Assembly (NCBI GenBank): GCA_046597055.1
Contig: JBKJLC010000037.1
Location: 64,001 to 128,000, forward strand
Length of the DNA stretch: 64,000 nucleotides
Direction of reading: 5' to 3'
DNA from: Kofleriaceae bacterium
Lineage (GTDB): Bacteria; Myxococcota_A; Polyangia; Haliangiales; Haliangiaceae
The stretch's first letter is position 1, and the number at the start of each line of letters is the position of its first letter. This document shows positions 2,595 through 23,673 of the stretch, piece after piece. The notes below the pieces were generated by a model that was not told the origin of the DNA, ran no database searches, and was given only the letters and a program-made list of their open reading frames with translations. Both the position numbers and the translations under genes were made by a program.

Positions 2595-3649
2595 GCCGCC
2601 GCCGGATCACCGCGCTGGTCGCGTTCGCGGTCACGCTTGGCCTGATGGCGTGCGCGGGCGTGCTCGGCCTGCGCCGCCCCGGTGATGCCAGGGTGTTCCC
2701 GCATCGGGCGCACGTCGTCGCCGGGGTGTCGTGCGTGACCTGCCACGCCGGCATTGCCGAGGCCGGCGACGACGGGCCGCTGCACCTGCCCGACGACGCG
2801 TCGTGCGCGACCTGCCACCTCAAGCCGCATGATCCGCGGCCGTGCCTCGGCTGTCACACCGACGCGCTCGCCGCCGGCGGCGCCGCCGACGCGCGCGCCC
2901 ACCTCCGCTTCGAGCACGCCCGCCACCAGGCGGTCACCAAGGGCAACTGCATGCGCTGCCACCAGGCGGTCGCCGAGGGCGACACCCGGCTGCGCCCGCC
3001 GATGGCGGCGTGCTGGAGCTGTCACGAGCACGACCGCGCCCGCGACGTGCGCGACTGCCAGGCCTGTCACCTGGATCTCGCCGAGGAGGGCACGGCGCCG
3101 GCCTCGCACCTCGTGCACGAGGGCGACTTCGTCAACAACCACGGCGTGAAGGCCGCGTCGTCGTCGGACACCTGCGCGAGCTGTCATGCCGAGCGCTTCT
3201 GCGCGAGCTGCCACGGCGTCACCGCGGCGGCGGTCCCGGCCCGGCTGTCGCCGGGCAACCCGATGCGGGCCAGCGTGCACCGCGCCGGGTTCCGCGGTCG
3301 CCACGCCGACGAGGCCAAGGTCGCGCCGGGCGCGTGCGCGTCGTGTCATCAGCCCGAGCGGTGCGAGGACTGCCACCGTGCCGAGGGCGTGACCGGCGCC
3401 GGCGCGGCGACCCCGCACCCGCCGGGCTGGGTCGGGCTGACTGCGGGCGAGAACCGGCACGGCCGCGCCGCCCGCCGCGACCCGGCCGCGTGCGCGAGCT
3501 GCCACGGCGGCGCCGGCGAGGCGCTGTGCGTCGGCTGCCACCGCGAGGGTGGCGTCGGCGGCAGCCCGCATCCGCCGGGGTGGTCATCGCGCCTGCCGCT
3601 GGCCGCGCTGCCATGCCGGCTCTGCCATACCAGCGGTGCCCGCCCGTGA
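2591..3649 (+). CDS. Exported multiheme cytochrome c (13 CxxCH)
   Basis: Signal/lipoprotein-like N-terminus (LMAC); c3-like FPHxxH pattern; 13 CxxCH counted. Confidence 0.9.
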   Translation: MSRRRITALVAFAVTLGLMACAGVLGLRRPGDARVFPHRAHVVAGVSCVTCHAGIAEAGDDGPLHLPDDASCATCHLKPHDPRPCLGCHTDALAAGGAADARAHLRFEHARHQAVTKGNCMRCHQAVAEGDTRLRPPMAACWSCHEHDRARDVRDCQACHLDLAEEGTAPASHLVHEGDFVNNHGVKAASSSDTCASCHAERFCASCHGVTAAAVPARLSPGNPMRASVHRAGFRGRHADEAKVAPGACASCHQPERCEDCHRAEGVTGAGAATPHPPGWVGLTAGENRHGRAARRDPAACASCHGGAGEALCVGCHREGGVGGSPHPPGWSSRLPLAALPCRLCHTSGARP

Positions 3650-7914: not shown

Positions 7915-8802
7915 TCAGAAGGGCCAGGCGGTGGCGGGGGTCACGGCCACGAGGTCGAGGCCCGTGCCGTCCTGGTTCGCCTGGTACACCGCCACGGTCC
8001 GCGACGAGCCCGCCCGGATCGCGATCAGGAGCTCGCGACGCCCGTCTGCGTCGATGTCGGCGATGCCGAGTACATCGATCGACGTCTTGCCGCGGCCGTG
8101 CCAAGCGAACTGACGCTCGCATCCGTCGGCGCCACGCCGCTCGCCTCGAACCTCCTTCGCCGCTGTCGCGCCCTCGAGGAATGCGGCGAGCGCGAACGCC
8201 TCGTCGCGGCCGTCGCCGTCCACGTCAGCGATCAGCCTGCCCTTAACCAGGCATGACTCCGCCACCGCGATCTCGATCGCAGGCCGGCTGGGATCGGCGA
8301 CCACCGCGACCGCAAGGCTGCAGCCGCCGGCGGCTGCGCACAGCCAGTCGGCGACGTCCTCGCCGTCCTCGCCAGGGCGATCGAGTGTGCACGCACCGCG
8401 GCCGCTGTCGTTGAACTTGCCGACAAAGCCCATCGGCTCGGCCGCAGCCTCATCGATTGCCGTCACCAAACTCCCGCGCCGTGCCCCCTCGAAGCCGAGG
8501 ACGGTGAAGCGCTGCGGCGCCTCGATCAGCGGAGCACGGACTACCTCTACCACCGAACTCCACCAGTTCCGCTGCACCAAGAAGCGTGGAAACAGGTGCG
8601 CTCGGCTCAGGTGCATGTTGAGGCAGACCTCGCCGACCAAGTAGCGTGGCCCCTGCGGCGGTACCGGCATCGCAGCGGGCAGCGGGCCTGCCTCGACGGG
8701 CGTCGCATCGCGCGGCGGCGGTCTCGGCAGCGCCGTCCGAGGTGCGCAGCCGGTGGTCGCGATCGCGGCCACGCTCAGGGCCACCGTAGAGACGGAGAGC
8801 AT
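7915..8802 (-). CDS. Lipoprotein with DxDxDG (FG-GAP/VCBS-like Ca-binding) motifs
   Basis: Lipobox TTGC; ADVDGDGRDE and ADIDADGRRE; TAGTAT -10-like hexamer 7 nt before ATG. Confidence 0.7.
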   Translation of the reverse strand: MLSVSTVALSVAAIATTGCAPRTALPRPPPRDATPVEAGPLPAAMPVPPQGPRYLVGEVCLNMHLSRAHLFPRFLVQRNWWSSVVEVVRAPLIEAPQRFTVLGFEGARRGSLVTAIDEAAAEPMGFVGKFNDSGRGACTLDRPGEDGEDVADWLCAAAGGCSLAVAVVADPSRPAIEIAVAESCLVKGRLIADVDGDGRDEAFALAAFLEGATAAKEVRGERRGADGCERQFAWHGRGKTSIDVLGIADIDADGRRELLIAIRAGSSRTVAVYQANQDGTGLDLVAVTPATAWPF

Positions 8803-8970
8803 GCGGCTGATACTACTTCAACCTCGCGATCGAAAAACGCATGAAGCCGGCCAAGCTCGAACCTTGCGATGAAGAACACAACGCGATCCACGGTGTGTCG
8901 AGCACGTCGAGCACATCAGGTGCGCTTGACCGGGCTCTCGGGCCCGTGCCACATGTAATTGGGAACCACC

Positions 8971-10110
8971 ATGGACTACGGCTACGTCCCGGACAGAGAC
9001 CCATACCTCAACCGCCTCCGCGTAGTAGTCGACCGTCGTCCCAACACGGCCATGGTGAGTGTGCGGAGCGTCCGCAGTCTCCAGGCCTTCATCCAGCACC
9101 TCGATCGGGCGTCCAGCGTCACGCGGCCGATCGATCACATGGTCGTTGGCGGCCACGCCAATCGCTGGGCCTGGCAGGTGAACCTGTACGGCGCGAGTCA
9201 GGGTACGACCTTCGAGACCATCGTGGACTCGATGGCAGTTCCTGCCAACTCGATCGTGGTGCCAGATGCGGTGATCGGATTCGTTCCGGACCAGCCCAAT
9301 CCATCGGAGCACTTCTTTCATATCAAGGGCTGCAATTTGGGCAAGGCCCCCGCATTCCTCGAAAAGTTGAGCGAGGGACTCGGCGGCCGTCTCAAGATCA
9401 CCGCGCCCAAGCACTTCCATGGCGCTAGCACCCATGGGCGACACCTCTTCGAGTGGATGGCATACGAGTTCGTCATCTTCCAGAAGTCGAGACTAACCAC
9501 CAGGGCCGCACTGGCGGCTGCCTACCACGCAGCGCCATTGGTACTGATCGACGGCCGGACGAAAGTGCCCGAGGCGATGTGGGACAGGTGGCTAAGTCGA
9601 TTCCGAAACATCAATAGAACGCAAAGCGTTCCTGTCTGGTCGAGGCTTGGCGTCTCGCTCGGCCGTCGCGGACGCGTCGAGACGGCGACAGTCCTAACAG
9701 CGACCAGCCCTACGCTAGTCCGTCGGAGCGTCCGATACCCTTCGGAGGCCGACATCCCGACCGATCTGAACGAACGGATGGCTGAGCTGAGGCGGCAACT
9801 GTTGCTCATCGCCATGTACGAGGACACTCACCCCTTCCCAATGTTCAAGAGGCTTGGCTACGCTTCCTTCGAAGACATGATAGATGGCTTGGATTGGAAG
9901 ATTTTCACCAGCCGTCAGGGCGTGTGGCACTTGCTACATTTCGCCGGCAGTCGTTATGAATACCAATTGATGGTGCCGATCATGGATCAGTCCGGTAGCC
10001 TCGAGCCGCACCTCGGCACCATGATCTTCAACCACTGGCCGGCGACCGGCTCCTCGGTGAGTCGAGGGATCGTCGAGTCCGACAGCGCCTTCTTCGCGAC
10101 GGTCCCGTGA
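8971..10110 (+). CDS. Hypothetical protein with putative caspase-fold (DUF4347/clan CD-like) His-Cys N-terminal domain
   Basis: HMVVGGHAN and FHIKGCNLG motifs; AT-richer codons; GTGA overlap with next gene. Confidence 0.6.
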   Translation: MDYGYVPDRDPYLNRLRVVVDRRPNTAMVSVRSVRSLQAFIQHLDRASSVTRPIDHMVVGGHANRWAWQVNLYGASQGTTFETIVDSMAVPANSIVVPDAVIGFVPDQPNPSEHFFHIKGCNLGKAPAFLEKLSEGLGGRLKITAPKHFHGASTHGRHLFEWMAYEFVIFQKSRLTTRAALAAAYHAAPLVLIDGRTKVPEAMWDRWLSRFRNINRTQSVPVWSRLGVSLGRRGRVETATVLTATSPTLVRRSVRYPSEADIPTDLNERMAELRRQLLLIAMYEDTHPFPMFKRLGYASFEDMIDGLDWKIFTSRQGVWHLLHFAGSRYEYQLMVPIMDQSGSLEPHLGTMIFNHWPATGSSVSRGIVESDSAFFATVP

Positions 10111-13100
10111 CGGTACCAGAAACCCTGCGCGGGCTCTCCGAGCGGGTGGGCTTTGGCCTGATGCCGCTCCACGAGGCGTTGCGCGATGCCGACTCCTTAC
10201 GTGACTTCCTCGAGGAATTCGGATGGGATTTCGTGGCAGCGCCTGCCTCGCTCCTCGCGCTGCAGCCGGCGATCCAGCTCGCGGTGGAGAACGCGACCGG
10301 CATCGTCCACGACGCCGACATCTCTCTTGCCGTGGTCTTGCCGTCGCTGGTCGCGGCGTTCAACGGAATCGCGGCGTTGCAGAGCGCGTCAGACCTGCCG
10401 GCCGACTTCCGCGCGGAGTTCCCGGCCCAACTCGTCGACTACCTGCTGGTTAGGCAATTGCTCGACAACGTTCCCGGCTGGGGCGCGCTGTTGCAGGCCA
10501 TCGGGGTCGTGCGCATCGAGGACGTCGCGGCCGCTAGCGCGCGGCCCGAATACCAGCGCTACGTCCTGGATCGCGCAAAGCTCATCGACTACCTGCAAGA
10601 GCCGCTCGCGACGCTGAAGTCCACGTATCGCTGGGGAGACAGCGACTTCGACGGACAGGGGATGCTGCGCAGCGCCGTCGAGCTGGCGCAGCGCTGGGGC
10701 GCCGAGGTCTACGAGCACAGCCCGTCGGCCGCGCTGGTGGCAGCGCTCAACGCTGGCGCGCTCGACCCGGCAGCCACCGAGCACTCCGCGCCGCGGGCGA
10801 TCCTCGCGCTCGAGCGCGTCGAGCCCGGCGCCTTCGACGTTGGTGTCGCGTTGTTCTTGCTACCCGAGACCGCCACCGCGGCGCCGGGCTTCGCCGTGTT
10901 GCCAAGCGGCTCCGGTGAGCTCGGCGAAACGATCATGCTGCGCGACGACACGCGGCTCGACATCGGCGGCGACCTGACGGCGGGCCTCGGTGCGGTGGTG
11001 CGGCCGGGGCAGCCGATCGAGGCGATTGCCGGGGGAGGGATCGAGATCGCTTACAGCGTCGCGCGGGCCACTGCGACATCGCTGATAGGCAATCCCGAGG
11101 GCACGCGGCTCCAGGTGCAAGGCGCGGTTGGGCGGCTTGAGGTGTCGGGCACTGGTGGTGACGTCGAGTTGGTCGCGTCGATCGATACGACAGGGCTGGC
11201 GCTTGTTATCGACGGCGGCGACTCCGACGGTTTCGTCAGCGCCGCCCTGCCCGCCGCGTCGACGACGATCGAGTTCCCGTTCGGCGCGTCGTGGTCAAGC
11301 AAGACCGGCTTCGCGGTGCATGGGGGAAACAACCTCGCGGTGATGGTCCCGGTCGACGTTGGGCTCGGTCCGGTGCGCGTCTCCGGCGTGTCGGCAGCGC
11401 TGCGCGGTGAGCACTCCTTGGCGCAGCCGCCCCGCGTCATCCTCGAGGTCGGCGCGGCCATCCGCGGCGCGATCGGACCGGTGCAGTTCGAGATCCGCGG
11501 CGCCGGCGTCGAGCTCGGGCTGACGCTCGCCGATGGCAACCTCGGCCCGCTCGACGTCGCGGTCGGGTTCCGAGCGCCCGACGGCGTTGGCCTCGCGGTC
11601 GCGGCCGCCGTGGTCAAGGGCTCGGGCAGCGTCGCGTGCGATCGCGCGCGCAGCGAGTACGCCGGCTCGCTTCAGCTCGACGTCGGCGGCATCGGCGTCG
11701 CGGCGGCGGCGCTGCTAACGGCATCGCGTCCGGGGCAGCCCGCCGCCTACTCGCTGGTCGCGGCGATCTCGGCGGAGTTCGCCCCGATCCCGATCGGCCT
11801 TGGCTTCACGCTCGACGGGGTGGGCGGGTTGATCGGACTCCACCGCCGCGTCGATACTGCGGCGCTGCGGGCCGCCCTGCGGGGGCCCGGCATCGACAAC
11901 ATCTTCTTCGCCGACGACCCGGCGGCCCAGGCCTCGCGGTTGCTGACCGATCTCGCCACCTACTTCCCGGCGGCGCAGGGCCGCCACGTGTTCGGGCCGG
12001 CGGCGAAGTTCGGCTGGGGCACGCCGACGATCATCGAGGGTACGGTGGCGCTACTGCTGGAGGTGCCGGCGCCGGTGCGGCTGATGCTGCTGGGCAACGT
12101 GTCGACGGCGCTACCGACCAAGGACGAGCCGATCATCGAGCTCAACGTCGATGTGCTGGGCGAGCTGGACTTCTCGCGCAAGACGCTGGCCATCGACGCC
12201 GCGCTGCGCGACTCGCAGGTAGCTGGGTTCCCGATCACTGGCGACATGGCGCTGCGGATGGGATGGGGCGATTCGCCGAGCTTTGCGCTGTCGGTGGGCG
12301 GTTTTCACTCGCAGTTTCGGCCACCGCCCGGGTTCCCGGAGCTCCGACGCGTGCGCATCCCCATCGGCTCGGGAGACAATCCGCGTCTCGACATTCAGGG
12401 CTTCCTGGCGCTGACATCGAATACCGTGCAAGTGGGCGCGGCCGTGGACTTGTACGTGGCAGCGGGCCCGCTGAACATCGTCGGTAGCCTGGGGTTCGAG
12501 GCGCTGGTCCAGTTCGTGCCATTCGGCTTCGAGGTCGACCTCTGGGCGGGCGTGGCGCTGCGGCGCGGCAGCCGCGTGCTGGCGGGCGTGCACCTCGATG
12601 GCAAGCTACGGGGGCCGTCGCCGTGGCACTTCTCGGGCGAGGCATGTCTGTCGCTCTGGTTCGTCGATCTGTGCGTCGGCTTCGATGCGACGTTCGGCCA
12701 GGAGCGCCCCGTCGAGTTGCCGCAGCGCGAGATCTGGCCGCAGCTTGAGGCAGCGCTGAAGGATGTACGCAACTGGACCTCGGCGATGCGGCCGGCGGCG
12801 GCGCGCGCGGTAATCACAGCGCCTCCGGTCGATGATGGTGTGCCTGTGACGCGGATCGATCCGGCCTCGGCGCTATCGGTGCAGCAGAAGGTCGCGCCGC
12901 TCAATCGCCTCATCGAGCGCTTCGCGCAGGTAGCGCCATTGGGACCCGTCAAGTTCCAGATCCAGAACGCGAAGCTGGGCGAAACGGTGCTCACCCCGGG
13001 CCTGGTCGAGGACTGGTTTGCACCGGCGCAGTTCGAGGACCTCACCGATGCAGAGCGCATGTCGCGGCCCGGCTACGAGAAGATGGTGGCGGGCGTGACC

Positions 13101-13505
13101 CTCGCCAGCGACGCGGTCGTCACGGTCGGCTCCGAGCTGATCAGGCCGCTCGAGTACGAGACCATCAAGTTCCCCGACCCCGAGCCGCTGCTGGTGAAGT
13201 ATCGCCCGTCGGTGATGCTGCAGCTGGCCGGCACCACCAGGGCCGCCAGCGCAAATGCGCCGCTGCGCCACGGCGCCGCGGGTGCGTTCGCTCCGCTCCG
13301 CGGCACGCCCCCGCTGGTCACGCTGGAGGGGGAGCGCTTCGTGATCGTCTCCACGCTCGATCTCACGCCGCGCCTCGACATCACGCCGGCCGCCGGCCGG
13401 GGTGACGTAGAGCTAGCGCTCAAGACGCATCTGGCGGCCAACCCCGGCGCCCGTGACGCGTTGCAGGTGGTGCCGCGGTTCGAGGTCGAGGAGCTGTTGC
13501 GATGA
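10107..13505 (+). CDS. DUF6603-type large beta-rich protein (1132 aa)
   Basis: Motifs IPIGLGFTLDGVGGLIGLHR, FGWGTPT, SVGGFHSQF, GFLALTSNTVQVGA, LRGPSPW recognised as DUF6603-like. Confidence 0.75.
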   Translation: MTVPETLRGLSERVGFGLMPLHEALRDADSLRDFLEEFGWDFVAAPASLLALQPAIQLAVENATGIVHDADISLAVVLPSLVAAFNGIAALQSASDLPADFRAEFPAQLVDYLLVRQLLDNVPGWGALLQAIGVVRIEDVAAASARPEYQRYVLDRAKLIDYLQEPLATLKSTYRWGDSDFDGQGMLRSAVELAQRWGAEVYEHSPSAALVAALNAGALDPAATEHSAPRAILALERVEPGAFDVGVALFLLPETATAAPGFAVLPSGSGELGETIMLRDDTRLDIGGDLTAGLGAVVRPGQPIEAIAGGGIEIAYSVARATATSLIGNPEGTRLQVQGAVGRLEVSGTGGDVELVASIDTTGLALVIDGGDSDGFVSAALPAASTTIEFPFGASWSSKTGFAVHGGNNLAVMVPVDVGLGPVRVSGVSAALRGEHSLAQPPRVILEVGAAIRGAIGPVQFEIRGAGVELGLTLADGNLGPLDVAVGFRAPDGVGLAVAAAVVKGSGSVACDRARSEYAGSLQLDVGGIGVAAAALLTASRPGQPAAYSLVAAISAEFAPIPIGLGFTLDGVGGLIGLHRRVDTAALRAALRGPGIDNIFFADDPAAQASRLLTDLATYFPAAQGRHVFGPAAKFGWGTPTIIEGTVALLLEVPAPVRLMLLGNVSTALPTKDEPIIELNVDVLGELDFSRKTLAIDAALRDSQVAGFPITGDMALRMGWGDSPSFALSVGGFHSQFRPPPGFPELRRVRIPIGSGDNPRLDIQGFLALTSNTVQVGAAVDLYVAAGPLNIVGSLGFEALVQFVPFGFEVDLWAGVALRRGSRVLAGVHLDGKLRGPSPWHFSGEACLSLWFVDLCVGFDATFGQERPVELPQREIWPQLEAALKDVRNWTSAMRPAAARAVITAPPVDDGVPVTRIDPASALSVQQKVAPLNRLIERFAQVAPLGPVKFQIQNAKLGETVLTPGLVEDWFAPAQFEDLTDAERMSRPGYEKMVAGVTLASDAVVTVGSELIRPLEYETIKFPDPEPLLVKYRPSVMLQLAGTTRAASANAPLRHGAAGAFAPLRGTPPLVTLEGERFVIVSTLDLTPRLDITPAAGRGDVELALKTHLAANPGARDALQVVPRFEVEELLR

Positions 13506-16354
13506 GTCAGACCGGCGCTGCTTACCGGTTCCTCTCGTGGGCGCGGCGCGGTGCCGCGAGCCACATCGAGTTGCTTGACGGCAACACCGGCGCGGCGCGC
13601 GTCGAGGTGCCCATCGAGGTCCGTTTCAACGGGGGCAGCAACACCGCCTCGCTGAGGCTCGAGCTGCTCGGCCCGGGCGACGTGGTCTCGCTCGACCCGC
13701 GCGCCGTGACGCGCGTCTTTCCCCCGCCCGAGACGCGCGATGCCGAGCCCAACTACTTCCCGCTCATCGAGTTCGATCAGGTCGACCTGCCGTGGCGCTT
13801 CACGCCGCGCGCCGCCAACCCGACCAGCGGCCGCGTGCGTCCGTGGTTCTGCCTCATCGCCGTCGAGGAGGGCGAAGCGTTCCAGTACACGCCGTCCGGT
13901 GGTGGCCGCCCCACCGGCGTGGTCGAGATCCAGCCCAGCGTCCCGCTGCCGCTGCTCGATCAGTCGTGGGCCTGGGCCCACGTCCAGCTCAGCGGCGACG
14001 ACGCGCTGACCTCGCCTGAAGCCATCGCCGCCCAGCCCGAGCGCGCCGTCGCACGGCTGCTCTGTCCCCGCCGCCTCGACACCCGCAAGACCTACTGGGT
14101 GATGCTGGTCCCGACCTTCGAGGTCGGCCGCCTCGCCGGTCTGCGCCAGCCGCTCGGCACCGCCATCAACTCGCTCGCACCGGCGTGGCAAGAGCCTCGC
14201 GGAACGGTCGTGCGGCCGGTGTACTACCGCTGGCGCTTCGGGACGGGTCAGGGCGGTGACTTCGAGACGCTGGTTCGCCAGCTGCAGCCGCGTCCGCTGC
14301 CGGCGACGGTGGGCACCCGCCCCCTCGACGTCAGCCAGCCCGGCACGCTGCCACCCGCCTCGACCCGGTCTGTCCCCATCGGTGGGGCGCTGCGGGCGCC
14401 GCTCGGCGACCCGTGGGCGTGGCCGGGGGACGAGAGCCAGCGCGCCAGCTTCATCGATCTGCTCTCGGCACTGCTCGACCACCCCGACGTCCTGCGCCAG
14501 AGTGGCGGCGCGCCGGTGGTGGTGCCGCCCCTCTACGGCACCTGGCACGCGCGCAGCCGGCGCCTGCAGGCCGGCTCGCCGCCGCCGTGGTTCCGGGATC
14601 TCAACCAGGATCCACGCGCCCGCATCGGTGCGGCGCTCGGCACCGAGGTGATCCAGACGCTGCAGGATCTGTTGATGACGTCGGCGTGGGATCAGCTCGC
14701 CGGCATCCGCGACGCCAATGATCAGCTGCGCAAGGCCCAGTTCGCCCGCGCCATCGCCGAGCGCTTTCACGTGCGCTTCGTCCAGCCGGCCAACGCCGAC
14801 AACGTGCTGACCTTCACTGCGCCGGCGCTCGGCCACATCCGGCCGGCGATCAAGACGGTGCGGGCCCTGGTAGCGAACAGCCCAGCTCGCCTGGCACTGG
14901 TCAGCGGCACCTTCCGCCGGCTGGCGCGTCCACTCGGCCCGATGGGTCGCCGGCAAGGTCGGAAGAGCCTCGCGAGCGAGCCGCTGATCACGCGCGTCAA
15001 CAGTGGCCGGTACGACGGGGTGCTCGCCGCAGAGCCACCGACGTCGCAGGCATTGCCCACCTGGGACTGGGTGATGAAGGCCGACGCCTGGCCCTCTGTC
15101 TTCTCCGGGCCGCTCAGCCAGAGTCTCCTGAAGAACACGGTGCCGCCGCAGCCCCAGAAAACCGTGGGCGACGTCGAAGACGACGGGCCGCCGGTGGACG
15201 ACACCAGGAGCGAAACCGACGACAGCCCGTCAATGGCGCGCTTTCGCGCCGCCGCCATCGCCCTCGCGCTCGGCCGAACCAACCCGCTCGACCCGCCGAA
15301 GCCAGGCGAGACCCTCCACCAGCTCGACCTCCCAGCGGTCAAGGCCAGCGTGACCACCGGGGTCGATCCCAGGGTCACCATTCCAGCGGCGCTGCGCGAC
15401 CGCATGGTCGGCCGTCCGGATTTCGTGTGGAATCCGCCGGACCCGATCGAGCCAGTGATGGCCCACCCCGAGTTCCCGCAGCCGATGTACAAGCCGCTCG
15501 CCGAGCGCTCGCCCGAATGGATCTTGCCGGGCCTGGAGGCCGTGGAGGCCAACAGCGTTGGTCTCGCCGTCACCAACCCGGCGTTCATCGAGGCGTACAT
15601 GGTCGGCCTCAATCACGAGATGGCGCGCGAACTGTTGTGGAACGAGTACCCGACCGATCAGCGCGGCAGCTACTTCCGCCAGTTCTGGGATACCGCCGGC
15701 CTGGCACCGACGCCGGTCCCGGAGACGTTCAAGGACATCCGTCGCCTGCAGGAGTGGCCCGCCAGCTCCCTCCTCGGCACCCACAGCCCGCGCCCACCGA
15801 TCCCCGGTGGCGCACCGCATCTGGTGCTGCTGGTGCGCGGCGAGGTGCTGCGGCGGTATCCGGGCACGCTGGTGTACGCGCAGCGCGCGCGGGGGCCGAT
15901 CGCCGATCCCGAGCTCGCCGATCCCACCGCCGCCGGCGTGCTGCGTCGTCCGGTGTTCGGCGGCCGCCTGGATCCTGACATCGCCTTCTTCGGCTTCGAG
16001 CTGACCGATGCCGAGGCGCGGGGCGGCCCGAACGATCCGGGATGGTTCTTCGTGTTCGAGGAGCAGCCCGGGGAGCCGCGCTTCGGCCTCGATGCCTCGT
16101 TCACGGCGGCGAACCCGACGAGCTGGGATGACCTGGCGTGGCGGCACCTGGTGCCGGACGCGAACGATATCGCCACCATCAACTACATCGATCTCGCCGC
16201 TGACAAGCCGACCATCACCGGGGTCACCGCCCCCGGCGGCGCCGGCTGGCACGTCAGCGGCCCCGCCCCGGTCGCGAGGGGCGCCGATCACGCCTACATC
16301 ACCTTCCAGCGTCCGGTGCGAGTCGCGATGCACGGCTCCCTGCTGGTGCCGTGA
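13502..16354 (+). CDS. Large uncharacterised protein (950 aa)
   Basis: Long GC3-biased ORF, ATGA overlap; motif-like blocks GPGDV..EPNYFP..DLPWRFTP and FIEAYMVGLNHEMARELLWNEYPTDQRGSYFRQFWD. Confidence 0.85.
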   Translation: MSQTGAAYRFLSWARRGAASHIELLDGNTGAARVEVPIEVRFNGGSNTASLRLELLGPGDVVSLDPRAVTRVFPPPETRDAEPNYFPLIEFDQVDLPWRFTPRAANPTSGRVRPWFCLIAVEEGEAFQYTPSGGGRPTGVVEIQPSVPLPLLDQSWAWAHVQLSGDDALTSPEAIAAQPERAVARLLCPRRLDTRKTYWVMLVPTFEVGRLAGLRQPLGTAINSLAPAWQEPRGTVVRPVYYRWRFGTGQGGDFETLVRQLQPRPLPATVGTRPLDVSQPGTLPPASTRSVPIGGALRAPLGDPWAWPGDESQRASFIDLLSALLDHPDVLRQSGGAPVVVPPLYGTWHARSRRLQAGSPPPWFRDLNQDPRARIGAALGTEVIQTLQDLLMTSAWDQLAGIRDANDQLRKAQFARAIAERFHVRFVQPANADNVLTFTAPALGHIRPAIKTVRALVANSPARLALVSGTFRRLARPLGPMGRRQGRKSLASEPLITRVNSGRYDGVLAAEPPTSQALPTWDWVMKADAWPSVFSGPLSQSLLKNTVPPQPQKTVGDVEDDGPPVDDTRSETDDSPSMARFRAAAIALALGRTNPLDPPKPGETLHQLDLPAVKASVTTGVDPRVTIPAALRDRMVGRPDFVWNPPDPIEPVMAHPEFPQPMYKPLAERSPEWILPGLEAVEANSVGLAVTNPAFIEAYMVGLNHEMARELLWNEYPTDQRGSYFRQFWDTAGLAPTPVPETFKDIRRLQEWPASSLLGTHSPRPPIPGGAPHLVLLVRGEVLRRYPGTLVYAQRARGPIADPELADPTAAGVLRRPVFGGRLDPDIAFFGFELTDAEARGGPNDPGWFFVFEEQPGEPRFGLDASFTAANPTSWDDLAWRHLVPDANDIATINYIDLAADKPTITGVTAPGGAGWHVSGPAPVARGADHAYITFQRPVRVAMHGSLLVP

Positions 16355-16357
16355 GCC

Positions 16358-19300
16358 ATGCCTGACCTGTCCGACAACATCGAGACGCTGGACGCGGCGT
16401 ATCCCATCGCGCTGCTGCCGGTCCGCATCGAGACCCGCTTCGTCAGCGGGAGGAGCCCCGAGCTGCTGGTGCGCGTCTATCCCGACGAGATCGCGGCCGA
16501 GCTGGGCCATCTCATGACCAGCGACGCCGCTGAGGCGGCGCGCCAGTTCTGGCGCGAGGGCTGGCAGTACGCCGACGAGCTCGACGCCTGGCGCCGGCTG
16601 GTGCAGCGATATCCCGGGCAGGTCGCGGCTGCGCTGGTCGACGAGCACCGTCCCGACAACTGGACCAGTCGCCCCAGCGGTCAACCGACGTGGGCCAATG
16701 CGCCTCGGCCATCGTCGCCACAGACAGCGACCACCCGCGTGCTCCCCGATTGCTGGATCGCGGTCGGTTTCCGCAAGGGCCAGCAGACGCTGCGCCACAT
16801 CGGCAGCGCGATCGTCGAGCCGCTGGCGCTGTCGTTCCGCCGCGACATCGAGGAAGGTGCGCCAGAGCTGATCGATCACGATGGCCTCCAGGTCGAGCCT
16901 GCGCTGCGATGGACCGTCGACGTCGAGGAGGCGATCAAAGTCGGCATGGCGATGCGCATCCCGATCACCAGCCTCGATCTGGCCCAAGGCTTCGATCGGC
17001 TGGTGGTGTACGGCGTCAAGACCACGCTGTCTCCCGCGGACACTGGGGCGCGCCTCGAGACCCTGCTCGATAGTCACCGTCACAGCCGCGGGCTGGCGCT
17101 GGTTCCGCAAGGCACGCCCACCAACAACTCCAGCGAGGGCGGCTCGGGGTATCCGCCGCCCGACGATGCCGACCGCAGGTTCGTCATCGAGCGTGGTCCA
17201 CCGCTCCCCACCCCCGGTAGCGACGGCGATGTGCTGGCCAAGGCGCTCGGTCTGGCCACCGGCATCTTCGATCACGTCGAAGGCGCCGGCGGCGTGGAGC
17301 AGAAGCGCGCCCGCGCCATGAACCAGGCGCTGTGGCCGTGCACGCTCGGATACTTCCTCGAGCAAATGATGGCGCCGCTGGTGAGCGCCGCCAACGTCAC
17401 GGCCATCCGCAGCCACGTCGCCGACTTCGTGCGCGGGCGTGGGCCACTGCCTGCCTTCCGCGTGGGCCGCGTGCCATACGGCATCCTGCCGGTGACCCCG
17501 CTGTGGGGCTCGATCGATGGCTTCGAGACCGCCCTGGTGGAGCGGCTGAGCTCGTGGCAACCGCGCGTGCTCGAGCAGGTGCCCCACGTCGCGCGCATCG
17601 GCCGCACCGGCGATCCGGACGCCGATCTGCTCGGCATCCTCGCCCTCGACGCCAGCACGCGCGAGGTCCGTCTGCGCGAGGTCGTCGGCCCGGCGTACGT
17701 GCGCGCGGTGCTGCAGCTCCTGGACACCGATGCCTCGCTCGGCGTGAGCGAGCGTAGCGATCTGACCCAGCGCGTGATGACGGCGCTCGGAATGGCGGGT
17801 TCGCCGCGCGTCGGCACCATGACGTTCAGCAACAAGGCGCCGCGCATCGACCTGCCGATGGTCGCGCCCGAACCGCTGTCGGAAGATCAGACGCTCGTCG
17901 ACAACTACATCACCGACCTCCTGACCGCCAAGACCACAGAAGATCTGGAGCCGTCGCCGGTCTCGCGTCCCTTGCTGTTCCACCTTCTCCGTCAGGGCGC
18001 GCTGGTCGAGTACCACCGCGTCGCGGTCGACCTCGCCATCGCCGCCGGCCTCGATCCCAAGGGCGTCCCCTACGCCCAGGCGTCCGATCGCCGCGAGATC
18101 GAGCTGTTCCAGGTCCCGCCGCCCCCGGCCGGCGCCCCGTCACCGCAGCCGCCGCGGCGGAGTCCGAGCCAGCGCTTCGCCCAGACGCTGCCGGTCGCCG
18201 GCGGCTCCATGCTCAGCGACTGGCTCCTGAACCTGCCGACCGATCCGGCCAAGGACCACGGGCGCCAGCCGATCCGCGCGCACGTCGAGGCGCTGAAGGC
18301 GCTCGAGGGCGCGCCCACCGCCGAGCTCGAACGTCTGATGACCGAGACGCTCGACACCTGCTCGCACCGCCTCGACGCGTGGATCACCTCGCTGGCGACG
18401 CGCCGGCTGTCGGCGCGTCGCGCCACCCATCCCGAGGGCATCTACCTGGGCGGCTACGCGTTCGTCGAGAACCTGCGCGCCCGCCAGGCGCCGTTTCCCG
18501 GCCAGACCGGCGGCTTCATCCATGCGCCGTCGGCATCGCACGCCGCTGCCGCCGCCATCCTGCGCAACGGGTACCTCACTCACGAGAACACCGCGGAGGT
18601 TGCGATCGATCTGTCGTCGCAGCGGGTGCGGCGCGCGCTGTCGCTGTTCGACGGCGTGCGGCACGGCCAGCAGGCCGGCGCGGTGCTTGGCTACTGGTTC
18701 GAGCGCGGCCTGCACGACCGCCAGCTCGACCGCTACATCGCGCCGTTCCGTCGACTGTATCCGCTGGGCCGGTTGCCCGACGCTCCCGACGAAGGCCCCG
18801 ACGAGCCGATCGCCGCCCGCAACGTGGTCAACGGCCTGGCGCTGCGCGATGCATTGCTGCGGCGGCCGGTACTGCCGTGGACCGATGCCGACATCCTGCC
18901 GCTGGTGTCCGAGGCCGACCGCCCGGCGGTGCAGGTGTGCCTGGCGCAGCTCGAGGACGACGTCGACGCCGCTGCCGACCTGCTGGCCGCCGAGTCGGTC
19001 TATCAGGCGGTGCAGGGCAACACCGATCGCGCTGGGGCCAACCTGGCCAGCGGCGCCGGGACCGGCAGCCTGCCCACGCCGGGCATCGTCACGCCGCCCA
19101 CCTCCGGCACGGCGTTCACCCACCGGGTGGCCATCGTGCTAGGCGGCGCGCCGACGACGTTGGCATGGCCGGCGTCCGGCGCCCGCCGCATCGCCGAGCC
19201 ACGTCTCGACGCCTGGCTCGGCAACCGGATGGGCAGCGCGGCCGCCGTCCAGTGCCGCGCGCGGTACGACCAGACCGAGACCACGGTCACCATGCAGGAC

Positions 19301-20620
19301 CTCGGTCTGAGCGCCATCGACTTCGTGATCCTGGCGCGCCGTACCGGCGCCGCCGGCAGCGAGCTGGCGTCGCGCGTGATCGCCCACGTACGCGCGACGG
19401 TCAGCGGCATCACCGGGCCGGTCGAGGTTGACTTCGCGCGCCCCACCGCCGCTGTTCCGTCGTGGCCGTACAGCGTGTTCAGCGTCGACGAGGCACTGGA
19501 GACCGCGCGGCTGCTCGGCGACCTGGCGCTGGGCGCTCGCCCGCTCTCCAGCGACGATCTGATGTTGCCGCACGCCGCCGGCGCGCCGTTCACCGTCGAC
19601 ACCGCCGAGATGACCAGCCGCGCCACCGCGGCGCTGGGCCAGCTCGGCGCCGCCCGCAGCGCGCTCGACGCCGCCGTCACGGCTGCCGCATCGCCTTCAC
19701 CGCCACCCACCAGCCTCGACGATCTGCGCGCCGCCTTGTGGACCGCCGCCGGTTTCGGTGTGCGCGAGGCGGTTCCGGTCGACCTCGCCGGCACCGACGC
19801 CGTCGCCCGCGCCGCGCTGCGGGTCCAGGGCGCCACCATGCAGGCCGAGCTGGCCCGCCGCGACGCCGCCGCCAGCGTGGCGATCAGCGGCTTCGACAAG
19901 CTGATCGCCCTGTTCGGCCTCGAGGTGCCCATCCTGGTGCCGTTCACGCCGGCCAACCGCCCCGACCTCGACACCGCACTGGCGCAACCGCCTGGGAATC
20001 CGATCGGAACCCGTCACTGGCTGGAACGGATGGCGCGCCTGCGCGACCCGCTCGACCGCCTGCGGCTGGCCCACCTGGCCAGCGACGCCATGACCGGCAC
20101 CCCGGTGTCGGAGGCCGGTCTGCACTTCGAGATCGCCCAGCTGCCGTTCGTCCCCGGTGCGCCCTGGATCGGCAATTCGTTCGATCCCAGCGAGGCGTGG
20201 CAGCGCCCGCGCGCCGGCACCGTTTCGATCGCGGTCCACCGGCCCGTCGGCTTCGAGTACGCCGGCAGCTGGTCGGGCCTCCTGCTCGACGACTGGAGCG
20301 AGACCATCCCCGCGGCGTCACAGATGACGTCGTACGCGGTCCACCACCAGTCGCCGGGCGCCGAGGCGCCGCAGTGCGTGCTGCTTGCGGTGGCGCCGCC
20401 GACACCCGACGTCCCCCGCTGGGGTCCGTCGCTGGTCGAGGACTGCATCGAGCAGGCCTTCGACGTCGCGCGCATTCGCGCCGTCGACTCCGACCTCCTC
20501 CATCCCTATGCGCTGCTCGTGCCTTGCATCTACCTGGCCGCCAACGTCGCCCCGGACACCATCCGGTCGCCGCTCAGCCACGGGGTCATCCACGAGGCCG
20601 TCATCGCGCCGCCGGAGTGA
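16358..20620 (+). CDS. Large uncharacterised protein (1420 aa)
   Basis: Starts 3 nt after upstream stop; blocks PIALLPVRIETRF..RVYPD, LDTCSHRLDAWITSLA, GGFIHAPS, DDWSETIP..APQCVLLAV. Confidence 0.85.
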   Translation: MPDLSDNIETLDAAYPIALLPVRIETRFVSGRSPELLVRVYPDEIAAELGHLMTSDAAEAARQFWREGWQYADELDAWRRLVQRYPGQVAAALVDEHRPDNWTSRPSGQPTWANAPRPSSPQTATTRVLPDCWIAVGFRKGQQTLRHIGSAIVEPLALSFRRDIEEGAPELIDHDGLQVEPALRWTVDVEEAIKVGMAMRIPITSLDLAQGFDRLVVYGVKTTLSPADTGARLETLLDSHRHSRGLALVPQGTPTNNSSEGGSGYPPPDDADRRFVIERGPPLPTPGSDGDVLAKALGLATGIFDHVEGAGGVEQKRARAMNQALWPCTLGYFLEQMMAPLVSAANVTAIRSHVADFVRGRGPLPAFRVGRVPYGILPVTPLWGSIDGFETALVERLSSWQPRVLEQVPHVARIGRTGDPDADLLGILALDASTREVRLREVVGPAYVRAVLQLLDTDASLGVSERSDLTQRVMTALGMAGSPRVGTMTFSNKAPRIDLPMVAPEPLSEDQTLVDNYITDLLTAKTTEDLEPSPVSRPLLFHLLRQGALVEYHRVAVDLAIAAGLDPKGVPYAQASDRREIELFQVPPPPAGAPSPQPPRRSPSQRFAQTLPVAGGSMLSDWLLNLPTDPAKDHGRQPIRAHVEALKALEGAPTAELERLMTETLDTCSHRLDAWITSLATRRLSARRATHPEGIYLGGYAFVENLRARQAPFPGQTGGFIHAPSASHAAAAAILRNGYLTHENTAEVAIDLSSQRVRRALSLFDGVRHGQQAGAVLGYWFERGLHDRQLDRYIAPFRRLYPLGRLPDAPDEGPDEPIAARNVVNGLALRDALLRRPVLPWTDADILPLVSEADRPAVQVCLAQLEDDVDAAADLLAAESVYQAVQGNTDRAGANLASGAGTGSLPTPGIVTPPTSGTAFTHRVAIVLGGAPTTLAWPASGARRIAEPRLDAWLGNRMGSAAAVQCRARYDQTETTVTMQDLGLSAIDFVILARRTGAAGSELASRVIAHVRATVSGITGPVEVDFARPTAAVPSWPYSVFSVDEALETARLLGDLALGARPLSSDDLMLPHAAGAPFTVDTAEMTSRATAALGQLGAARSALDAAVTAAASPSPPPTSLDDLRAALWTAAGFGVREAVPVDLAGTDAVARAALRVQGATMQAELARRDAAASVAISGFDKLIALFGLEVPILVPFTPANRPDLDTALAQPPGNPIGTRHWLERMARLRDPLDRLRLAHLASDAMTGTPVSEAGLHFEIAQLPFVPGAPWIGNSFDPSEAWQRPRAGTVSIAVHRPVGFEYAGSWSGLLLDDWSETIPAASQMTSYAVHHQSPGAEAPQCVLLAVAPPTPDVPRWGPSLVEDCIEQAFDVARIRAVDSDLLHPYALLVPCIYLAANVAPDTIRSPLSHGVIHEAVIAPPE

Positions 20621-20623
20621 TCC

Positions 20624-22381
20624 ATGCCGTCCATCACCTACTGGAATCGTCTCGAACCCCGCGCGCGCTCTAGCGATCTTACCGGCGCGCTCGCCGCCCG
20701 CGTGCGCGACCCGGCGTGGTTTCTGGCCCGGCAATGGCAGCTCGGTGAGCTGGCTGGCGAGGATGCCGGCTCGCCGGCCTATGTGCGCATCAACGCCGCG
20801 GTGGCGCCGATGGTCGGATGGCAAGGCGCCACCGGTCCGGCGGTGCCGATGCAGGCCAACGTGCCGCTCGAGCGGGCCGCCCTGGCCGAGCCCATGGCCA
20901 CCGACGACATCTCGCGGTGGGCCGAGCTCGGGACCGTGGTCGACACCTTCCTGCTGTTCTACAACGTCGCCGATCTGCGCAGCCACTGGCTCGAGGCGTT
21001 CCCCATCGGTCCCGCACCGTCCGGTGCGCCGGACGACCCGCGCGCCGCACGGCTGCGCTTGCTGTGGCAGGGTCGCGTGATCAACGGGCTGGCGGTATAC
21101 ACGGCAGCCGGACAGACGCCGACGCCGCCGCCGGCGCCCCCACCCGCGGTGCCGGCAACCGTGCCGTCGACGCGCTGGGCCCAGTGCAACCTCGCCATGC
21201 AGGCGTTCCGCGCCTACGTCAACAGCAGCCATCCCGGCAGCCCGATCGGCGCGGCCGATGCCGCGGCGTGGCGGCCCGAGCGGCTCGAGCACGAGCTGCG
21301 CACCGTCACCGGCGAGCCAGGTGCTACGCCGGGCAGCGTCAGCAGCGCGGTGCTGCAGGCGTTCCCCGACCGTACCGGCGACCTGCCCTGGTACGGCTTC
21401 GACCGCGTCGCCGAGGCGGTCCCGTCCGGGCTGCCGGCGTCGGTGCGCACCGACATCTCGCGCACCGTCATTCCCGGCCCGGTGAGGTTCCGCGGCCAGC
21501 CCAACGAGCGGTTCTGGGACTTCGAGGACGGCCGCGTCGACTTCGGGGCGCTGCGTCTCGACCGCCGCGATCTGACCAGCATGTTGCTGGTCGACTTCAT
21601 GCTCGTCCACGGCAACGACTGGTACCTGGTTCCGTTCGAGCAGCCGGTCGGCACCGTGTGCCGCACCGAGCTCACCGTGGTCGACGTGTTCGGCGTCGTG
21701 ACGCCGGTGCCGCGCGCCGAGGACGCCGACCCGGTCGCTCCCGGCAAGCGCTTCTCCCTGTTCGGGGTCACCGGGCTGGCCAACGGCCACCTGGTGCCCG
21801 ACAGCGTCGCCGGCGTGGTGCAGGACGGACGCACCCTCGAAGAAGTGCGCTTCGTGCGCGACGAGACCGCCAACCTGGCGTGGGCGATCGAGCGCTCCAC
21901 CGAGAGTCATCTCGGACGCGCGCTGCCGGGCAGCGAACGCGCCGGCGCCGAGCCACCGTCGCCGATCACCAGCGGCGTGGCACCGCTCCGGTACCAGCTG
22001 CAGTCGCACGTCCCGGTGCACTGGATCCCGTTCCAGGCGGTGGCGCTGCCGCCGGCCACCAGCGGACAGGTGGTGCTGGAGATGGCGTCGCTCCTCGCGC
22101 CAGAGGGTCCGCCCGGCGCAGCGCTCCACGAGGCGCTGCCGGCCGGCAAGATCTTGCGGCCGTCATCGGTGGCTGGGGCGCCGTACCGCGTTCGCGAGGA
22201 AGAGGTTCCGCGCGAAGGCACCCACGTCATCCGCTTCGCGCGCTTCGCGCGCTCCAGCAACGGCGCCAGCCACCTGTGGGTGACCCGCAAGCGCGTCACC
22301 GGACGCGGCGAAGGCGGGAGCGGCCTTCGCTTCGACCGCACCATCCCTCTCGAGACCGTGGTGCCCGGGACCGATCCGTGA
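20624..22381 (+). CDS. Uncharacterised protein (585 aa)
   Basis: Starts 3 nt after upstream stop; blocks DPAWFLARQWQLGELAGEDAGSP, RFWDFEDG, GNDWY, RDETANLAWAIE, GEGGSGLRFD. Confidence 0.85.
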   Translation: MPSITYWNRLEPRARSSDLTGALAARVRDPAWFLARQWQLGELAGEDAGSPAYVRINAAVAPMVGWQGATGPAVPMQANVPLERAALAEPMATDDISRWAELGTVVDTFLLFYNVADLRSHWLEAFPIGPAPSGAPDDPRAARLRLLWQGRVINGLAVYTAAGQTPTPPPAPPPAVPATVPSTRWAQCNLAMQAFRAYVNSSHPGSPIGAADAAAWRPERLEHELRTVTGEPGATPGSVSSAVLQAFPDRTGDLPWYGFDRVAEAVPSGLPASVRTDISRTVIPGPVRFRGQPNERFWDFEDGRVDFGALRLDRRDLTSMLLVDFMLVHGNDWYLVPFEQPVGTVCRTELTVVDVFGVVTPVPRAEDADPVAPGKRFSLFGVTGLANGHLVPDSVAGVVQDGRTLEEVRFVRDETANLAWAIERSTESHLGRALPGSERAGAEPPSPITSGVAPLRYQLQSHVPVHWIPFQAVALPPATSGQVVLEMASLLAPEGPPGAALHEALPAGKILRPSSVAGAPYRVREEEVPREGTHVIRFARFARSSNGASHLWVTRKRVTGRGEGGSGLRFDRTIPLETVVPGTDP

Positions 22382-22622: not shown

Positions 22623-23561
22623 TCACCGCTTCGGGTGAGCGTTCAGCCAGGGAAAGATCTGGGTAGCGGTGGCCGTGATGAAGAGCGTGTGCGGGCCGCC
22701 GACCACGGTCCATGACTCCACGTCGATGCCAGTCGGGCAACTGTCGTACGTCCGGGTGGTGGTCTCGGCGGTGGCATCGCCGATGAGGTCGATGGGCGCG
22801 CCGGGCGTCGCGGTGGTGGCGCAGCCATTGTAGGCGGCCCAACGCTGGTCGCTGCCCAGCGCCGATGGATACGGTGCTGCGGTGCCGTTGACCGTCGTCG
22901 AGCCACCTTCGTAGGCGATCGTCCGGTCATCGGTGCCGTGCGCGTGCAGCACGCTCACGGGCTCCGAGGGCGCACAGGCACCGGGATCGTTGAAGGTGGC
23001 GCCCCCGATCACGGCAATGGCGGCGAAGCGCCCGGCCGAGGCACAGGCCATGCGGAACGCCATGAACCCTCCGTTGGAGTCGCCGACAATGAAGACGCGG
23101 TCGGGGTCGACGTTGTAGGCGGCGCTGATCTCGTCGATGAGACCGTTCAGGTAGGCAACATCATCGACGGTCGAACCGTAGAAGTTGCAGCACGCGTCCG
23201 TCGCGTTCCAGAAATAGCGGCCGCCCTCGTCGAGCGTGCCGGTGGGTGCGATGAGCAGGAATCCGTCAGTTTCGTAGGCGTACGCCAGCCGCGTGACCCC
23301 GGTCACGTAGGTCGTGATCGAGCTGTAGCCGTGCAAGGCGATGACGAGCGGCATTGGTGTCGCGGCCGAGTAGCTCGACGGCACCAGCAACTCCGCCGGG
23401 CGCGTGCCGCCGAACGTTGTCGGCGGTGCGCCGTCCACCGCCGTCGCGTCGACGGCGACGGCGACGGGGCCGCCATCCACCGCGCTGCCGCCCTCACTCC
23501 CTCCGCAGCCGAGGACCGAGGCCAGCACGAGCGGCACCACCATCACTTCGAAAAAGCGCAT
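22623..23561 (-). CDS. PHB-depolymerase/LpqP-family alpha/beta hydrolase lipoprotein
   Basis: Lipobox VLGC; LHG, WNATDACC, GDSNGG nucleophile elbow, HGTDD. Confidence 0.85.
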   Translation of the reverse strand: MRFFEVMVVPLVLASVLGCGGSEGGSAVDGGPVAVAVDATAVDGAPPTTFGGTRPAELLVPSSYSAATPMPLVIALHGYSSITTYVTGVTRLAYAYETDGFLLIAPTGTLDEGGRYFWNATDACCNFYGSTVDDVAYLNGLIDEISAAYNVDPDRVFIVGDSNGGFMAFRMACASAGRFAAIAVIGGATFNDPGACAPSEPVSVLHAHGTDDRTIAYEGGSTTVNGTAAPYPSALGSDQRWAAYNGCATTATPGAPIDLIGDATAETTTRTYDSCPTGIDVESWTVVGGPHTLFITATATQIFPWLNAHPKR

Positions 23562-23673
23562 CGACCAGGGTAGCACGAGCCACGTCAGCGTCGCGCGCAC
23601 GGTCGGCCCGTGGACCGCCGGCCGGAGCCCGCGCCCGATCTGTACGGAGCAGCGGCGGCTCGCTTCGCTCGCT

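Follow-up and report, generated by a model that had tools for sequence, protein, structure and literature searches.

A conserved four-gene DUF6603 cassette with a variable upstream slot: a candidate chassis for exchangeable enzymes

Five large co-oriented genes with almost no recognisable domains raise the question of whether they form one system, which of them belong to it and what such a system might do. The genes lie on the plus strand, between positions 8971 and 22381, of a 64,000 nt stretch of DNA from a Kofleriaceae bacterium, referred to here as the window (GCA_046597055.1, contig JBKJLC010000037.1, positions 64,001 to 128,000, forward strand); coordinates are those of the window unless a locus is named. 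The closest relatives of the window proteins are found in Kofleriaceae and other Myxococcota. In the list of open reading frames (ORFs) the five genes, numbered 1 to 5 (proteins P0001 to P0005), encode 379, 1132, 950, 1420 and 585 aa. An initial annotation made from the sequence alone took them for a five-gene operon encoding a candidate undescribed system. A conserved, undescribed multi-protein system is supported by comparison with relatives, but its conserved unit is four genes (2–5) and not five, with gene 1 occupying a variable slot. The main new result is a swap boundary inside gene 2, whose product is a DUF6603 protein: judged from sequence identities, the exchanged unit is the enzyme gene plus approximately the first 400 residues of the DUF6603 protein. 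An anatomy consisting of a chassis, a swappable enzyme and an adaptor is highly probable.

The four-gene unit was delimited by a scan of one genome per species (185,579 species genomes), which gave 598 pattern matches, 579 of them with a gene 3 relative (at least 579 places); the locus statistics that follow are from the best 80 of these at least 579 places. Relatives of genes 2–5 are all present in 66 of the 80 loci, and in 65 of the 80 they share the same strand and the same order by best match. The exception in order, L038, has its best gene 5 match in an extra upstream copy, with gene 5 also in the usual place; the remaining 14 loci are truncated by a contig end within or immediately next to the cassette. 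The 4 nt overlap of genes 2 and 3 is found in most loci. More than 10 bacterial phyla are spanned by the 80 loci, with representatives in Myxococcota, Acidobacteriota, Gemmatimonadota, Bacteroidota, Actinomycetota (including Streptomyces), Bacillota (Neobacillus), Verrucomicrobiota, Planctomycetota, Chloroflexota, Ignavibacteriota, Gammaproteobacteria and others, and the archaeal operon has the same five-gene layout. This fixed order bears out the statement of the initial annotation that partners of this type accompany DUF6603 in unrelated phyla. The protein collection contains at least 859 gene 3 relatives, each annotated as ‘hypothetical’. The same Kofleriaceae genome also carries a second copy of genes 2–5 (locus L083, contig C188:8424–23049, minus strand) at 44–54 % identity; it is headed by a different 774 aa gene without a Pfam family, with an ankyrin-repeat gene further upstream. 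A small gene that seemed to be missing between genes 3 and 4 was considered and rejected, as the gaps seen at other loci are an N-terminal coiled-coil extension of gene 4.

Long spurious ORFs are abundant in high-GC DNA, and at approximately 72 % GC the window leaves room for reading the run as chance neighbours or mis-called ORFs and no system at all. However, GC at third codon positions (GC3) is 0.86–0.90 for genes 2–5 and 0.77 for gene 1, by which all five genes look coding; additionally, relatives of each protein number in the hundreds, the same gene order recurs across phyla in 66 of the 80 loci and the predicted models are confident. The conservation data refute this reading, which is left with practically no likelihood. 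Genes 1 and 2 are joined by a GTGA overlap (10107–10110) and genes 2 and 3 by an ATGA overlap (13502–13505), followed by two gaps of 3 nt, so that the tight coupling first described, like the gene sizes, is confirmed. The ORF containing gene 1 (8959..10110) could encode 383 aa from a TTG; the ATG at 8971 (379 aa) fits the family alignment. Gene 1 has a GC content of 60.5 %, in comparison to 69–73 % across the remaining operon. Three motifs that had been quoted as conserved, LLPVRIETRF and WFLARQWQLGE among them, stand at gene 4 residue 19, gene 3 residue 704 and gene 5 residue 32, and recur in the family consensus lines.

Gene 1 itself behaves differently, as none of the 80 related loci yielded a member of its family. 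In 55 of the 80, gene 2 follows a co-oriented gene, the end of which is no more than 30 nt away from gene 2 in 30 of these 55. Judged by sequence matches, the genes in this slot fall into unrelated enzyme families across lineages. The commonest is a NAL1/trypsin-like serine protease (22 loci; PDB 7y77, E 1.9e-16), followed by a PhoD-like metallophosphatase (10 loci) and an M64-like zinc peptidase (8 loci plus L046; PDB 4df9, E 7.5e-13). One or two loci each have an M14 carboxypeptidase, a PLD, a tyrosinase, galactose-oxidase-like fragments, a BSP peptidase, a DUF2515 protein or one of several unknowns, and one Streptomyces plasmid has a 1514-residue peptidoglycan-binding protein. Profile comparison (hhalign) revealed no domain common to the main slot families, or to them and gene 1, and no signal peptide is present in the slot proteins. 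On the gene 3 tree the slot type changes at least 22 times (51 labelled rows, 13 types), compared with 24–31 changes (mean 28.6) in 500 label shuffles. The ‘protease-regulated’ machine of the initial annotation is thus better put as one carrying an exchangeable enzyme that is often a protease.

Additional genes have been observed around the slot at individual loci. An extra DUF6603 gene (L060:1156–4761) or an extra gene-5-like gene (L038:890–2623) lies upstream of the slot enzyme, and in a Chloroflexia genome (L015:19341–22053) two M23 peptidase genes directly follow the cassette on its 3′ side, with two tandem M64-like slot genes on the 5′ side.

The gene 1 family comprises 691 representatives and was found at 45 loci in a metagenome scan. 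Among the 401 genomes of the Acidobacteriota-side phylum it gave one weak match, and none of 5 genomes with other cassettes yielded it. The window protein contains 15 His and one Cys, and H62, C121, K147, H148, H150 and E161 are invariant in 31 sequences; ‘His/Cys protein’, as gene 1 had been termed, is therefore a fair description (C121, H62, H148 and H150 all being invariant). That gene 1 encodes an enzyme is inferred solely from this set of invariant residues (His, Cys, Lys and Glu), and to call it a His/Cys hydrolase would be guesswork. The arrangement may resemble that of clan CD (caspase-like) cysteine peptidases, in which a His-then-Cys dyad, each residue following a hydrophobic strand, sits on a caspase-hemoglobinase fold: H62 and C121 each follow a hydrophobic stretch, but gene 1 has no Pfam or PDB sequence match. 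In a few family members the domain is fused behind a Peptidase_S8 (subtilase) or Peptidase_M64 domain, or to the Ig-like Big_5.

Where near-identical cassettes carry different slot genes, sharp divergence is confined to the first ~400 residues of gene 2. The pair L011/L012, with slot genes of different families (tyrosinase and galactose-oxidase-like), is 25–40 % identical in the N-terminal part of gene 2, in comparison to 86 % in its C-terminal part and 92 % in gene 3. Likewise, L057 and L060 share 36 % identity in the slot gene and 32 % in the N-terminal part, against 91 % in the C-terminal part and 98 % in gene 3; for L054/L064 the four values are 34, 37, 78 and 74 %. Pairs with the same enzyme lack any such step: slot gene, N-terminal part, C-terminal part and gene 3 are 90, 90, 89 and 88 % identical in L061/L078, and 86, 87, 90 and 86 % in L033/L037. 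Grouping of all labelled pairs by C-terminal identity gives a descriptive picture in the same direction. At 50–60 %, the median N-terminal identity is 41 % for pairs of the same slot family (n=8) versus 24 % for different families (n=38), and at 75 % or more it is 78 % (n=18) versus 25 % (n=1). It is the close pairs, not the medians, that carry the argument for the swap boundary.

The window cassette follows the same pattern. Of 22 loci with a P0001 relative and at least 1400 bp of downstream DNA, 15 have gene 2 directly after that relative, and those 15 gene 2 products align to the window protein at 26–37 % over ~430 residues in the N-terminal part and 30–39 % in the C-terminal part. The nearest core relatives of the window, which have other slot genes, reach 48–58 % in the C-terminal part, in contrast to 23–27 % or only partial alignment in the N-terminal part. 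The paralogue L083, with its different upstream gene (774 residues), gives 29 % in the N-terminal part versus 54 % in the C-terminal part.

A complex prediction of gene 2 residues 1–416 with gene 1, made with own alignments of cassette-linked relatives, places the two in contact. The contact score is 0.73 (0.72, 0.75 and 0.73 in three runs) versus 0.00 for the best of three controls. Among solved complexes, 116 of 157 attain the mark applied to this score, as do 2 of 215 mismatched pairs; these counts are rough because own alignments were used. The runs agree in at least 70 % of contacts, with a partner pLDDT (predicted local distance difference test) of 86. Predicted contact residues are 12–43, 64–69, 120–123, 142–150 and 188–205 in gene 2, and 209–239 and 154–157 in gene 1, the latter segment lying between invariant H150 and E161. 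The prediction supports binding of gene 1 to the N-terminal part of gene 2, and to this extent the multi-subunit machine proposed at the outset gains a candidate subunit contact.

The distribution of the cassette is sporadic and the cassette is mobile, because the gene 5 family occurs in 5 of 401 genomes of the window’s phylum (one genome from the same genus having three copies), the cassette is carried on plasmids (13 records, of which 4 are haloarchaeal megaplasmids and 5 are Streptomyces plasmids) and one Streptomyces copy is flanked by sets of tyrosine-recombinase genes. The genes had been suspected to be cargo of mobile DNA, which these observations bear out. The single match in a phage collection, an unannotated faecal scaffold marked ‘UNVERIFIED’, was set aside as uninformative. 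Patchiness of this kind with up to three copies per genome, megaplasmid carriage, position between recombinase genes and presence in both bacteria and archaea would also suit anti-phage or abortive-infection defence, as would a variable effector slot beside a conserved core and a fast turnover of modules. Under such a scheme the products of genes 2–5 would make up a sensor or scaffold that is large, cytoplasmic and tethered to the membrane; the enzyme in the slot (protease, PLD or phosphoesterase) would be an effector set free or activated on infection, and the N-terminal part of gene 2 would restrain it beforehand. The predicted contact at gene 1 residues 154–157 would suit an inhibitory hold, and all of the proteins are without export signals, as are defence proteins.

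However, none of the five proteins matches PADLOC-DB 2.0.0 (2023), and no nucleoside triphosphatase, nuclease or known sensor domain is present. DUF6603 is found in 0 of 14 well-known control genomes. Among 135 flanking proteins from 18 loci (a small sample, ~6 kb upstream and ~3 kb downstream), 8 have generic domains (kinase, ABC ATPase, TPR, methyltransferase and the like) and no recognisable system is apparent; an enrichment near defence genes, raised in the initial annotation, is thus not seen in these flanks. Slots filled by tyrosinase, galactose-oxidase-like and peptidoglycan-binding proteins, together with inserts of FG-GAP, VCBS, LTD and surface domains in the subunits, would be unusual for cytoplasmic immunity. 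On balance, a role in defence is somewhat unlikely.

How the system might relate to membranes is best seen in gene 3. In 43 of 66 relatives it has ~40 very hydrophobic residues mid-protein (residues ~545–610), resembling two helices with a tight turn, with a 19-residue Kyte–Doolittle mean of up to 3.6. Such a hairpin would keep both halves of gene 3 on one side of the membrane, and it could be a membrane anchor or an insertion element of the kind buried by soluble toxins. The window copy and 23 others are without the hydrophobic stretch; in the window its place is taken by an acidic linker (residues 513–597) with 10-residue-block mean pLDDT values of 47–74 and values under 50 at residues 513–518, 528–539 and 593–597. 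Presence or absence of the hairpin changes at least 8 times on the gene 3 tree. None of the five window proteins has a signal-peptide-like N-terminus or a strong hydrophobic segment (highest 19-residue Kyte–Doolittle mean 1.98), and a motif scan found neither Walker A nor HExxH in any of them; the absence of signal peptides and Walker motifs noted at first is therefore correct.

Leaderless proteins, with a membrane hairpin in most lineages and an enzyme predicted to dock on an adaptor, may also be read as an internal housekeeping scaffold. A membrane-associated assembly, acting as a docking platform or compartment, would then sequester, position or regulate a potentially harmful enzyme for the cell’s own use, as in envelope remodelling, developmental lysis or nutrient scavenging; the ordinary metabolic and regulatory genes in the flanks are in keeping with this. 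Occurrence in ~1 % of the genomes of the phylum nevertheless fits housekeeping poorly, as do carriage on plasmids, the position between recombinase genes and the swapping of enzyme types between near-identical cassettes. Additionally, no shell-protein family was found with Pfam. A housekeeping scaffold is accordingly regarded as improbable.

The core subunits themselves offer few further clues. Gene 2 matches DUF6603 (PF20248) at 395.4 bits against a curated cut-off of 27 bits (E 4.5e-118; residues 417–982, profile positions 2–501 of 502), and its conserved part shows glycine-rich conserved blocks in an alignment of 58 sequences. Searches of Pfam, NCBIfam, PADLOC and PHROG returned no match for genes 1, 3, 4 and 5, and only DUF6603 in gene 2 (Pfam). 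With Pfam at E <= 0.1, a set of 12 relatives per gene for genes 3, 4 and 5 yielded an FG-GAP insert in one gene 4 and otherwise chance-level matches. A profile search of PDB sequences with genes 2–5 and the gene 1 family yielded nothing credible, including no PDB sequence match for gene 4; matches to BRIL/cytochrome b562 and to designed coiled coils (E 3e-4 or weaker) were rejected as reflecting helical composition. An HExxH-type metalloprotease in gene 3 was also considered and rejected: its NHEMARE motif has an invariant E706, but conservation of H705 across 67 sequences is below 90 %, and an HExxH is absent. ‘DUF6603’, ‘PF20248’ and ‘IPR046538’ are absent from the literature searched, a search that lay outside subscription journals and supplements.

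AlphaFold2 models of gene 3 (pLDDT 86, predicted template modelling score (pTM) 0.74) and gene 5 (pLDDT 82, pTM 0.77) were compared with known folds. Foldseek found nothing in PDB at E <= 0.001 for either whole-chain model. The best matches of a wide VIA-align search were Z 5.5 for gene 5 (SAM-like helical part, 63 residues aligned, root-mean-square deviation (rmsd) 2.5) and Z 6.8 for gene 3 (Ig-like sandwich, 88 aligned, rmsd 3.5); both are below the level expected by chance for such models and fall in a range that the tool rates as common. These searches used the whole models of genes 3 and 5, in which a known single-domain fold could be missed. The gene 5 model has no match in the viral library BFVD (best E 4.3e-3 at TM 0.07) and leaves the conserved N-terminal motif (residues 1–46) unmodelled. 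In the ESM Atlas gene 5 has no usable match and gene 4 finds only its own unnamed clusters. Genes 4 and 5 share a ~100-residue helical module (residues 772–870 and 97–200, respectively; hhalign probability 85 %, E 6e-6), the only link between subunits found by hhalign. On a Rhizobium lusitanum plasmid (L088, 8939–21532), gene 3 is annotated as two genes of 357 and 731 aa and gene 4 as two of 946 and 597 aa; this split may mark natural domain boundaries of the giant subunits.

The combination of very large leaderless subunits with a variable enzyme invites comparison with known systems. Gene 2 is a full-length member of the Pfam DUF6603 proteins, a family without assigned function, and the cassette differs from that bare family assignment in providing gene 2 with three constant companions for which no model exists. 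In logic the closest likeness is to the Tc (ABC) toxin complexes of Photorhabdus and Yersinia, which likewise combine a row of very large leaderless subunits with a carrier that is conserved, an enzyme cargo that is hypervariable and soil-rich hosts. However, RHS, SpvB, VRP1 and TcA-type domains were not found by Pfam in the five proteins or in 36 relatives, the gene 3 and gene 5 models have no fold match, and the cassette cargo has a gene of its own and its adaptor on a different subunit, whereas the Tc cargo is a C-terminal extension inside the cocoon.

Polymorphic toxin and effector systems (type VI secretion system (T6SS) effectors with an adaptor or VgrG; Rhs or contact-dependent inhibition tips with immunity) are similar in that, at one end of a conserved gene set, a variable enzyme is replaced jointly with its cognate segment. 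They differ in that families of the sheath, tube, baseplate, PAAR or VgrG type are missing from the cassette, as are PHROG matches and a separate immunity gene, and in that its cognate segment is the N-terminus of a 1132-residue structural protein. Contractile and phage-tail-like systems (T6SS, extracellular contractile injection systems, tailocins) are likewise not indicated, as neither Pfam nor PHROG finds a sheath, tube, baseplate or spike, and none occurs in the flanks of the 18 loci. Encapsulin operons share a variable enzyme gene directly upstream of conserved structural genes and an enzyme predicted to dock. Their single small shell protein contrasts with four different giant subunits, and the cassette cargo types (proteases, PLD, tyrosinase) are unlike known encapsulin cargo; no encapsulin, HK97 or BMC shell family is found by Pfam in the five proteins or their relatives, and no such fold in the gene 3 and gene 5 models. 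Finally, the commonest slot enzyme (22 of the 55 loci with a called upstream gene) matches chains of the serine protease NAL1 (NARROW LEAF 1; PDB 7y77 and 8has, E 1.9e-16), but this concerns the slot enzyme of other loci, gene 1 of the window being of another, unnamed family.

The reading preferred here, at somewhat short of even likelihood, is of a four-subunit chassis carrying a swappable enzyme for action on other cells, that is, outward-acting delivery. Genes 2–5 would assemble into one multi-subunit chassis; the N-terminal part of gene 2 would be the adaptor holding the enzyme, which it may keep from acting within the producer. In most lineages the gene 3 hairpin would tie the assembly to a membrane or insert it there, a feature that would have been lost in the window copy. 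The assembly would be released from the producer by a route not yet seen, and would bring the enzyme against a target outside the producer’s cytoplasm, most likely other cells or their envelopes. Outward action is favoured because of the enzyme classes in the slot, the extracellular-type inserts, the soil hosts and flanks free of defence systems. Tyrosinase, galactose-oxidase-like, PhoD-like, M14, M64-like and peptidoglycan-binding classes usually work outside cells. The inserts are each found in a single lineage: an FG-GAP domain in the Neobacillus gene 4, a VCBS domain in the gene 3 copy of Streptomyces longwoodensis (in which the slot gene is the peptidoglycan-binding one and a neighbour encodes an RHS protein), and, in haloarchaea, LTD on gene 5 and a surface domain in gene 4. 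Judged by their domain types, they hint at action outside the cell. That the hosts are mostly soil organisms is a reading of organism names.

Several points weigh against delivery to other cells. Neither the cassette nor its surroundings show a conserved signal peptide, ATPase, channel, lysis gene or secretion gene, so that no exit route is known. No immunity-like gene was seen. The hairpin can be read as a plain cytoplasmic-membrane anchor, is absent from the window copy and has undergone at least 8 gains or losses on the gene 3 tree. Defence systems, too, commonly use proteases, PLD and phosphoesterases as effectors. Of the 22 P0001 relatives with sufficient downstream DNA, 7 (L108, L110, L111, L112, L115, L124 and L133) do not adjoin a DUF6603 gene; part of the gene 1 family lives outside the cassette, because these seven relatives have no following DUF6603 gene. 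The complex score expresses model confidence and is not a measurement, and the comparisons of enzyme families use related sequences, so that the binned medians are descriptive and overstate independence. Additionally, genes 2 and 4 could hold a known fold, the fold comparison being of genes 3 and 5.

A broader proposal is that the cassette represents a new class of machine in bacteria and archaea, unrelated in sequence and fold to known secretion, injection, toxin-complex and defence systems, which would load an interchangeable enzyme on the N-terminal adaptor of a DUF6603 protein and deliver it to a target membrane or cell by a leaderless, ATPase-free route. Taken in full this proposal is possible but doubtful. 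The system is rated as of a new kind with caution, as the fold evidence covers two of the four core proteins.

The features of the operon are collected in Table 1. The promoter is presumed to lie in the region upstream of gene 1; a sigma-70 consensus scan of that region found no site, nor did promoter and terminator consensus scans at both operon ends.

Table 1. Operon features and upstream region, in window coordinates
Feature	Position	Strand	Remarks
Presumed promoter region	8803..8970		Between minus-strand ORF 7915..8802 and gene 1; 168 bp; GC 0.583
Gene 1 (P0001), variable enzyme slot	8971..10110	+	379 aa; no Pfam model
Gene 2 N-terminal part, residues 1–416, variable adaptor region	10107..11354	+	Changes together with the enzyme gene
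Gene 2 conserved part (P0002 residues 417–1132)	11355..13505	+	DUF6603 at residues 417–982
Gene 3 (P0003), conserved subunit	13502..16354	+	950 aa; confident model, no known fold
Gene 3 residues 513–597, acidic low-confidence linker	15038..15292	+	From pLDDT
Gene 4 (P0004), conserved subunit without family	16358..20620	+	1420 aa
Gene 5 (P0005), conserved subunit	20624..22381	+	585 aa; AlphaFold2 model with a helical sub-domain and beta-rich domains

The surroundings of the operon are varied. A 295 aa ORF with a weak match to FG-GAP-like repeats (7915–8802, minus strand) is divergent from the operon and shares the lower-GC intergenic region with gene 1. Further upstream (299–5307, plus strand) is a run of multihaem c-type cytochrome genes with NapC/NirT-like, cytochrome c7/c3 and MtrC-like domains, overlapped by high-GC ORF calls. 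Downstream, an esterase or polyhydroxybutyrate-depolymerase-like hydrolase (22623–23600, minus strand) is followed between 24837 and 38171 by genes for a sigma-54 response regulator, NnrS, a haemolysin-III-like protein, TerC, a LysR regulator, an NmrA-like protein and an RND pump with its outer-membrane factor. None of the downstream neighbours in the window recurs next to the cassette in other genomes.

If the reading as a machine with an exchangeable enzyme is true, ~13 kb of conserved coding sequence, spread over hundreds of species in more than 10 phyla and in haloarchaea, would encode a machine of an undescribed kind. The swap boundary and the predicted contact offer an entry point to it, consisting of one protein pair, one interface and a natural panel of exchangeable enzymes. 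Possible gains from its study are a new path for leaderless enzymes to their targets, competition or defence factors of a new family in soil bacteria, and a modular scaffold able to take up very different enzymes.

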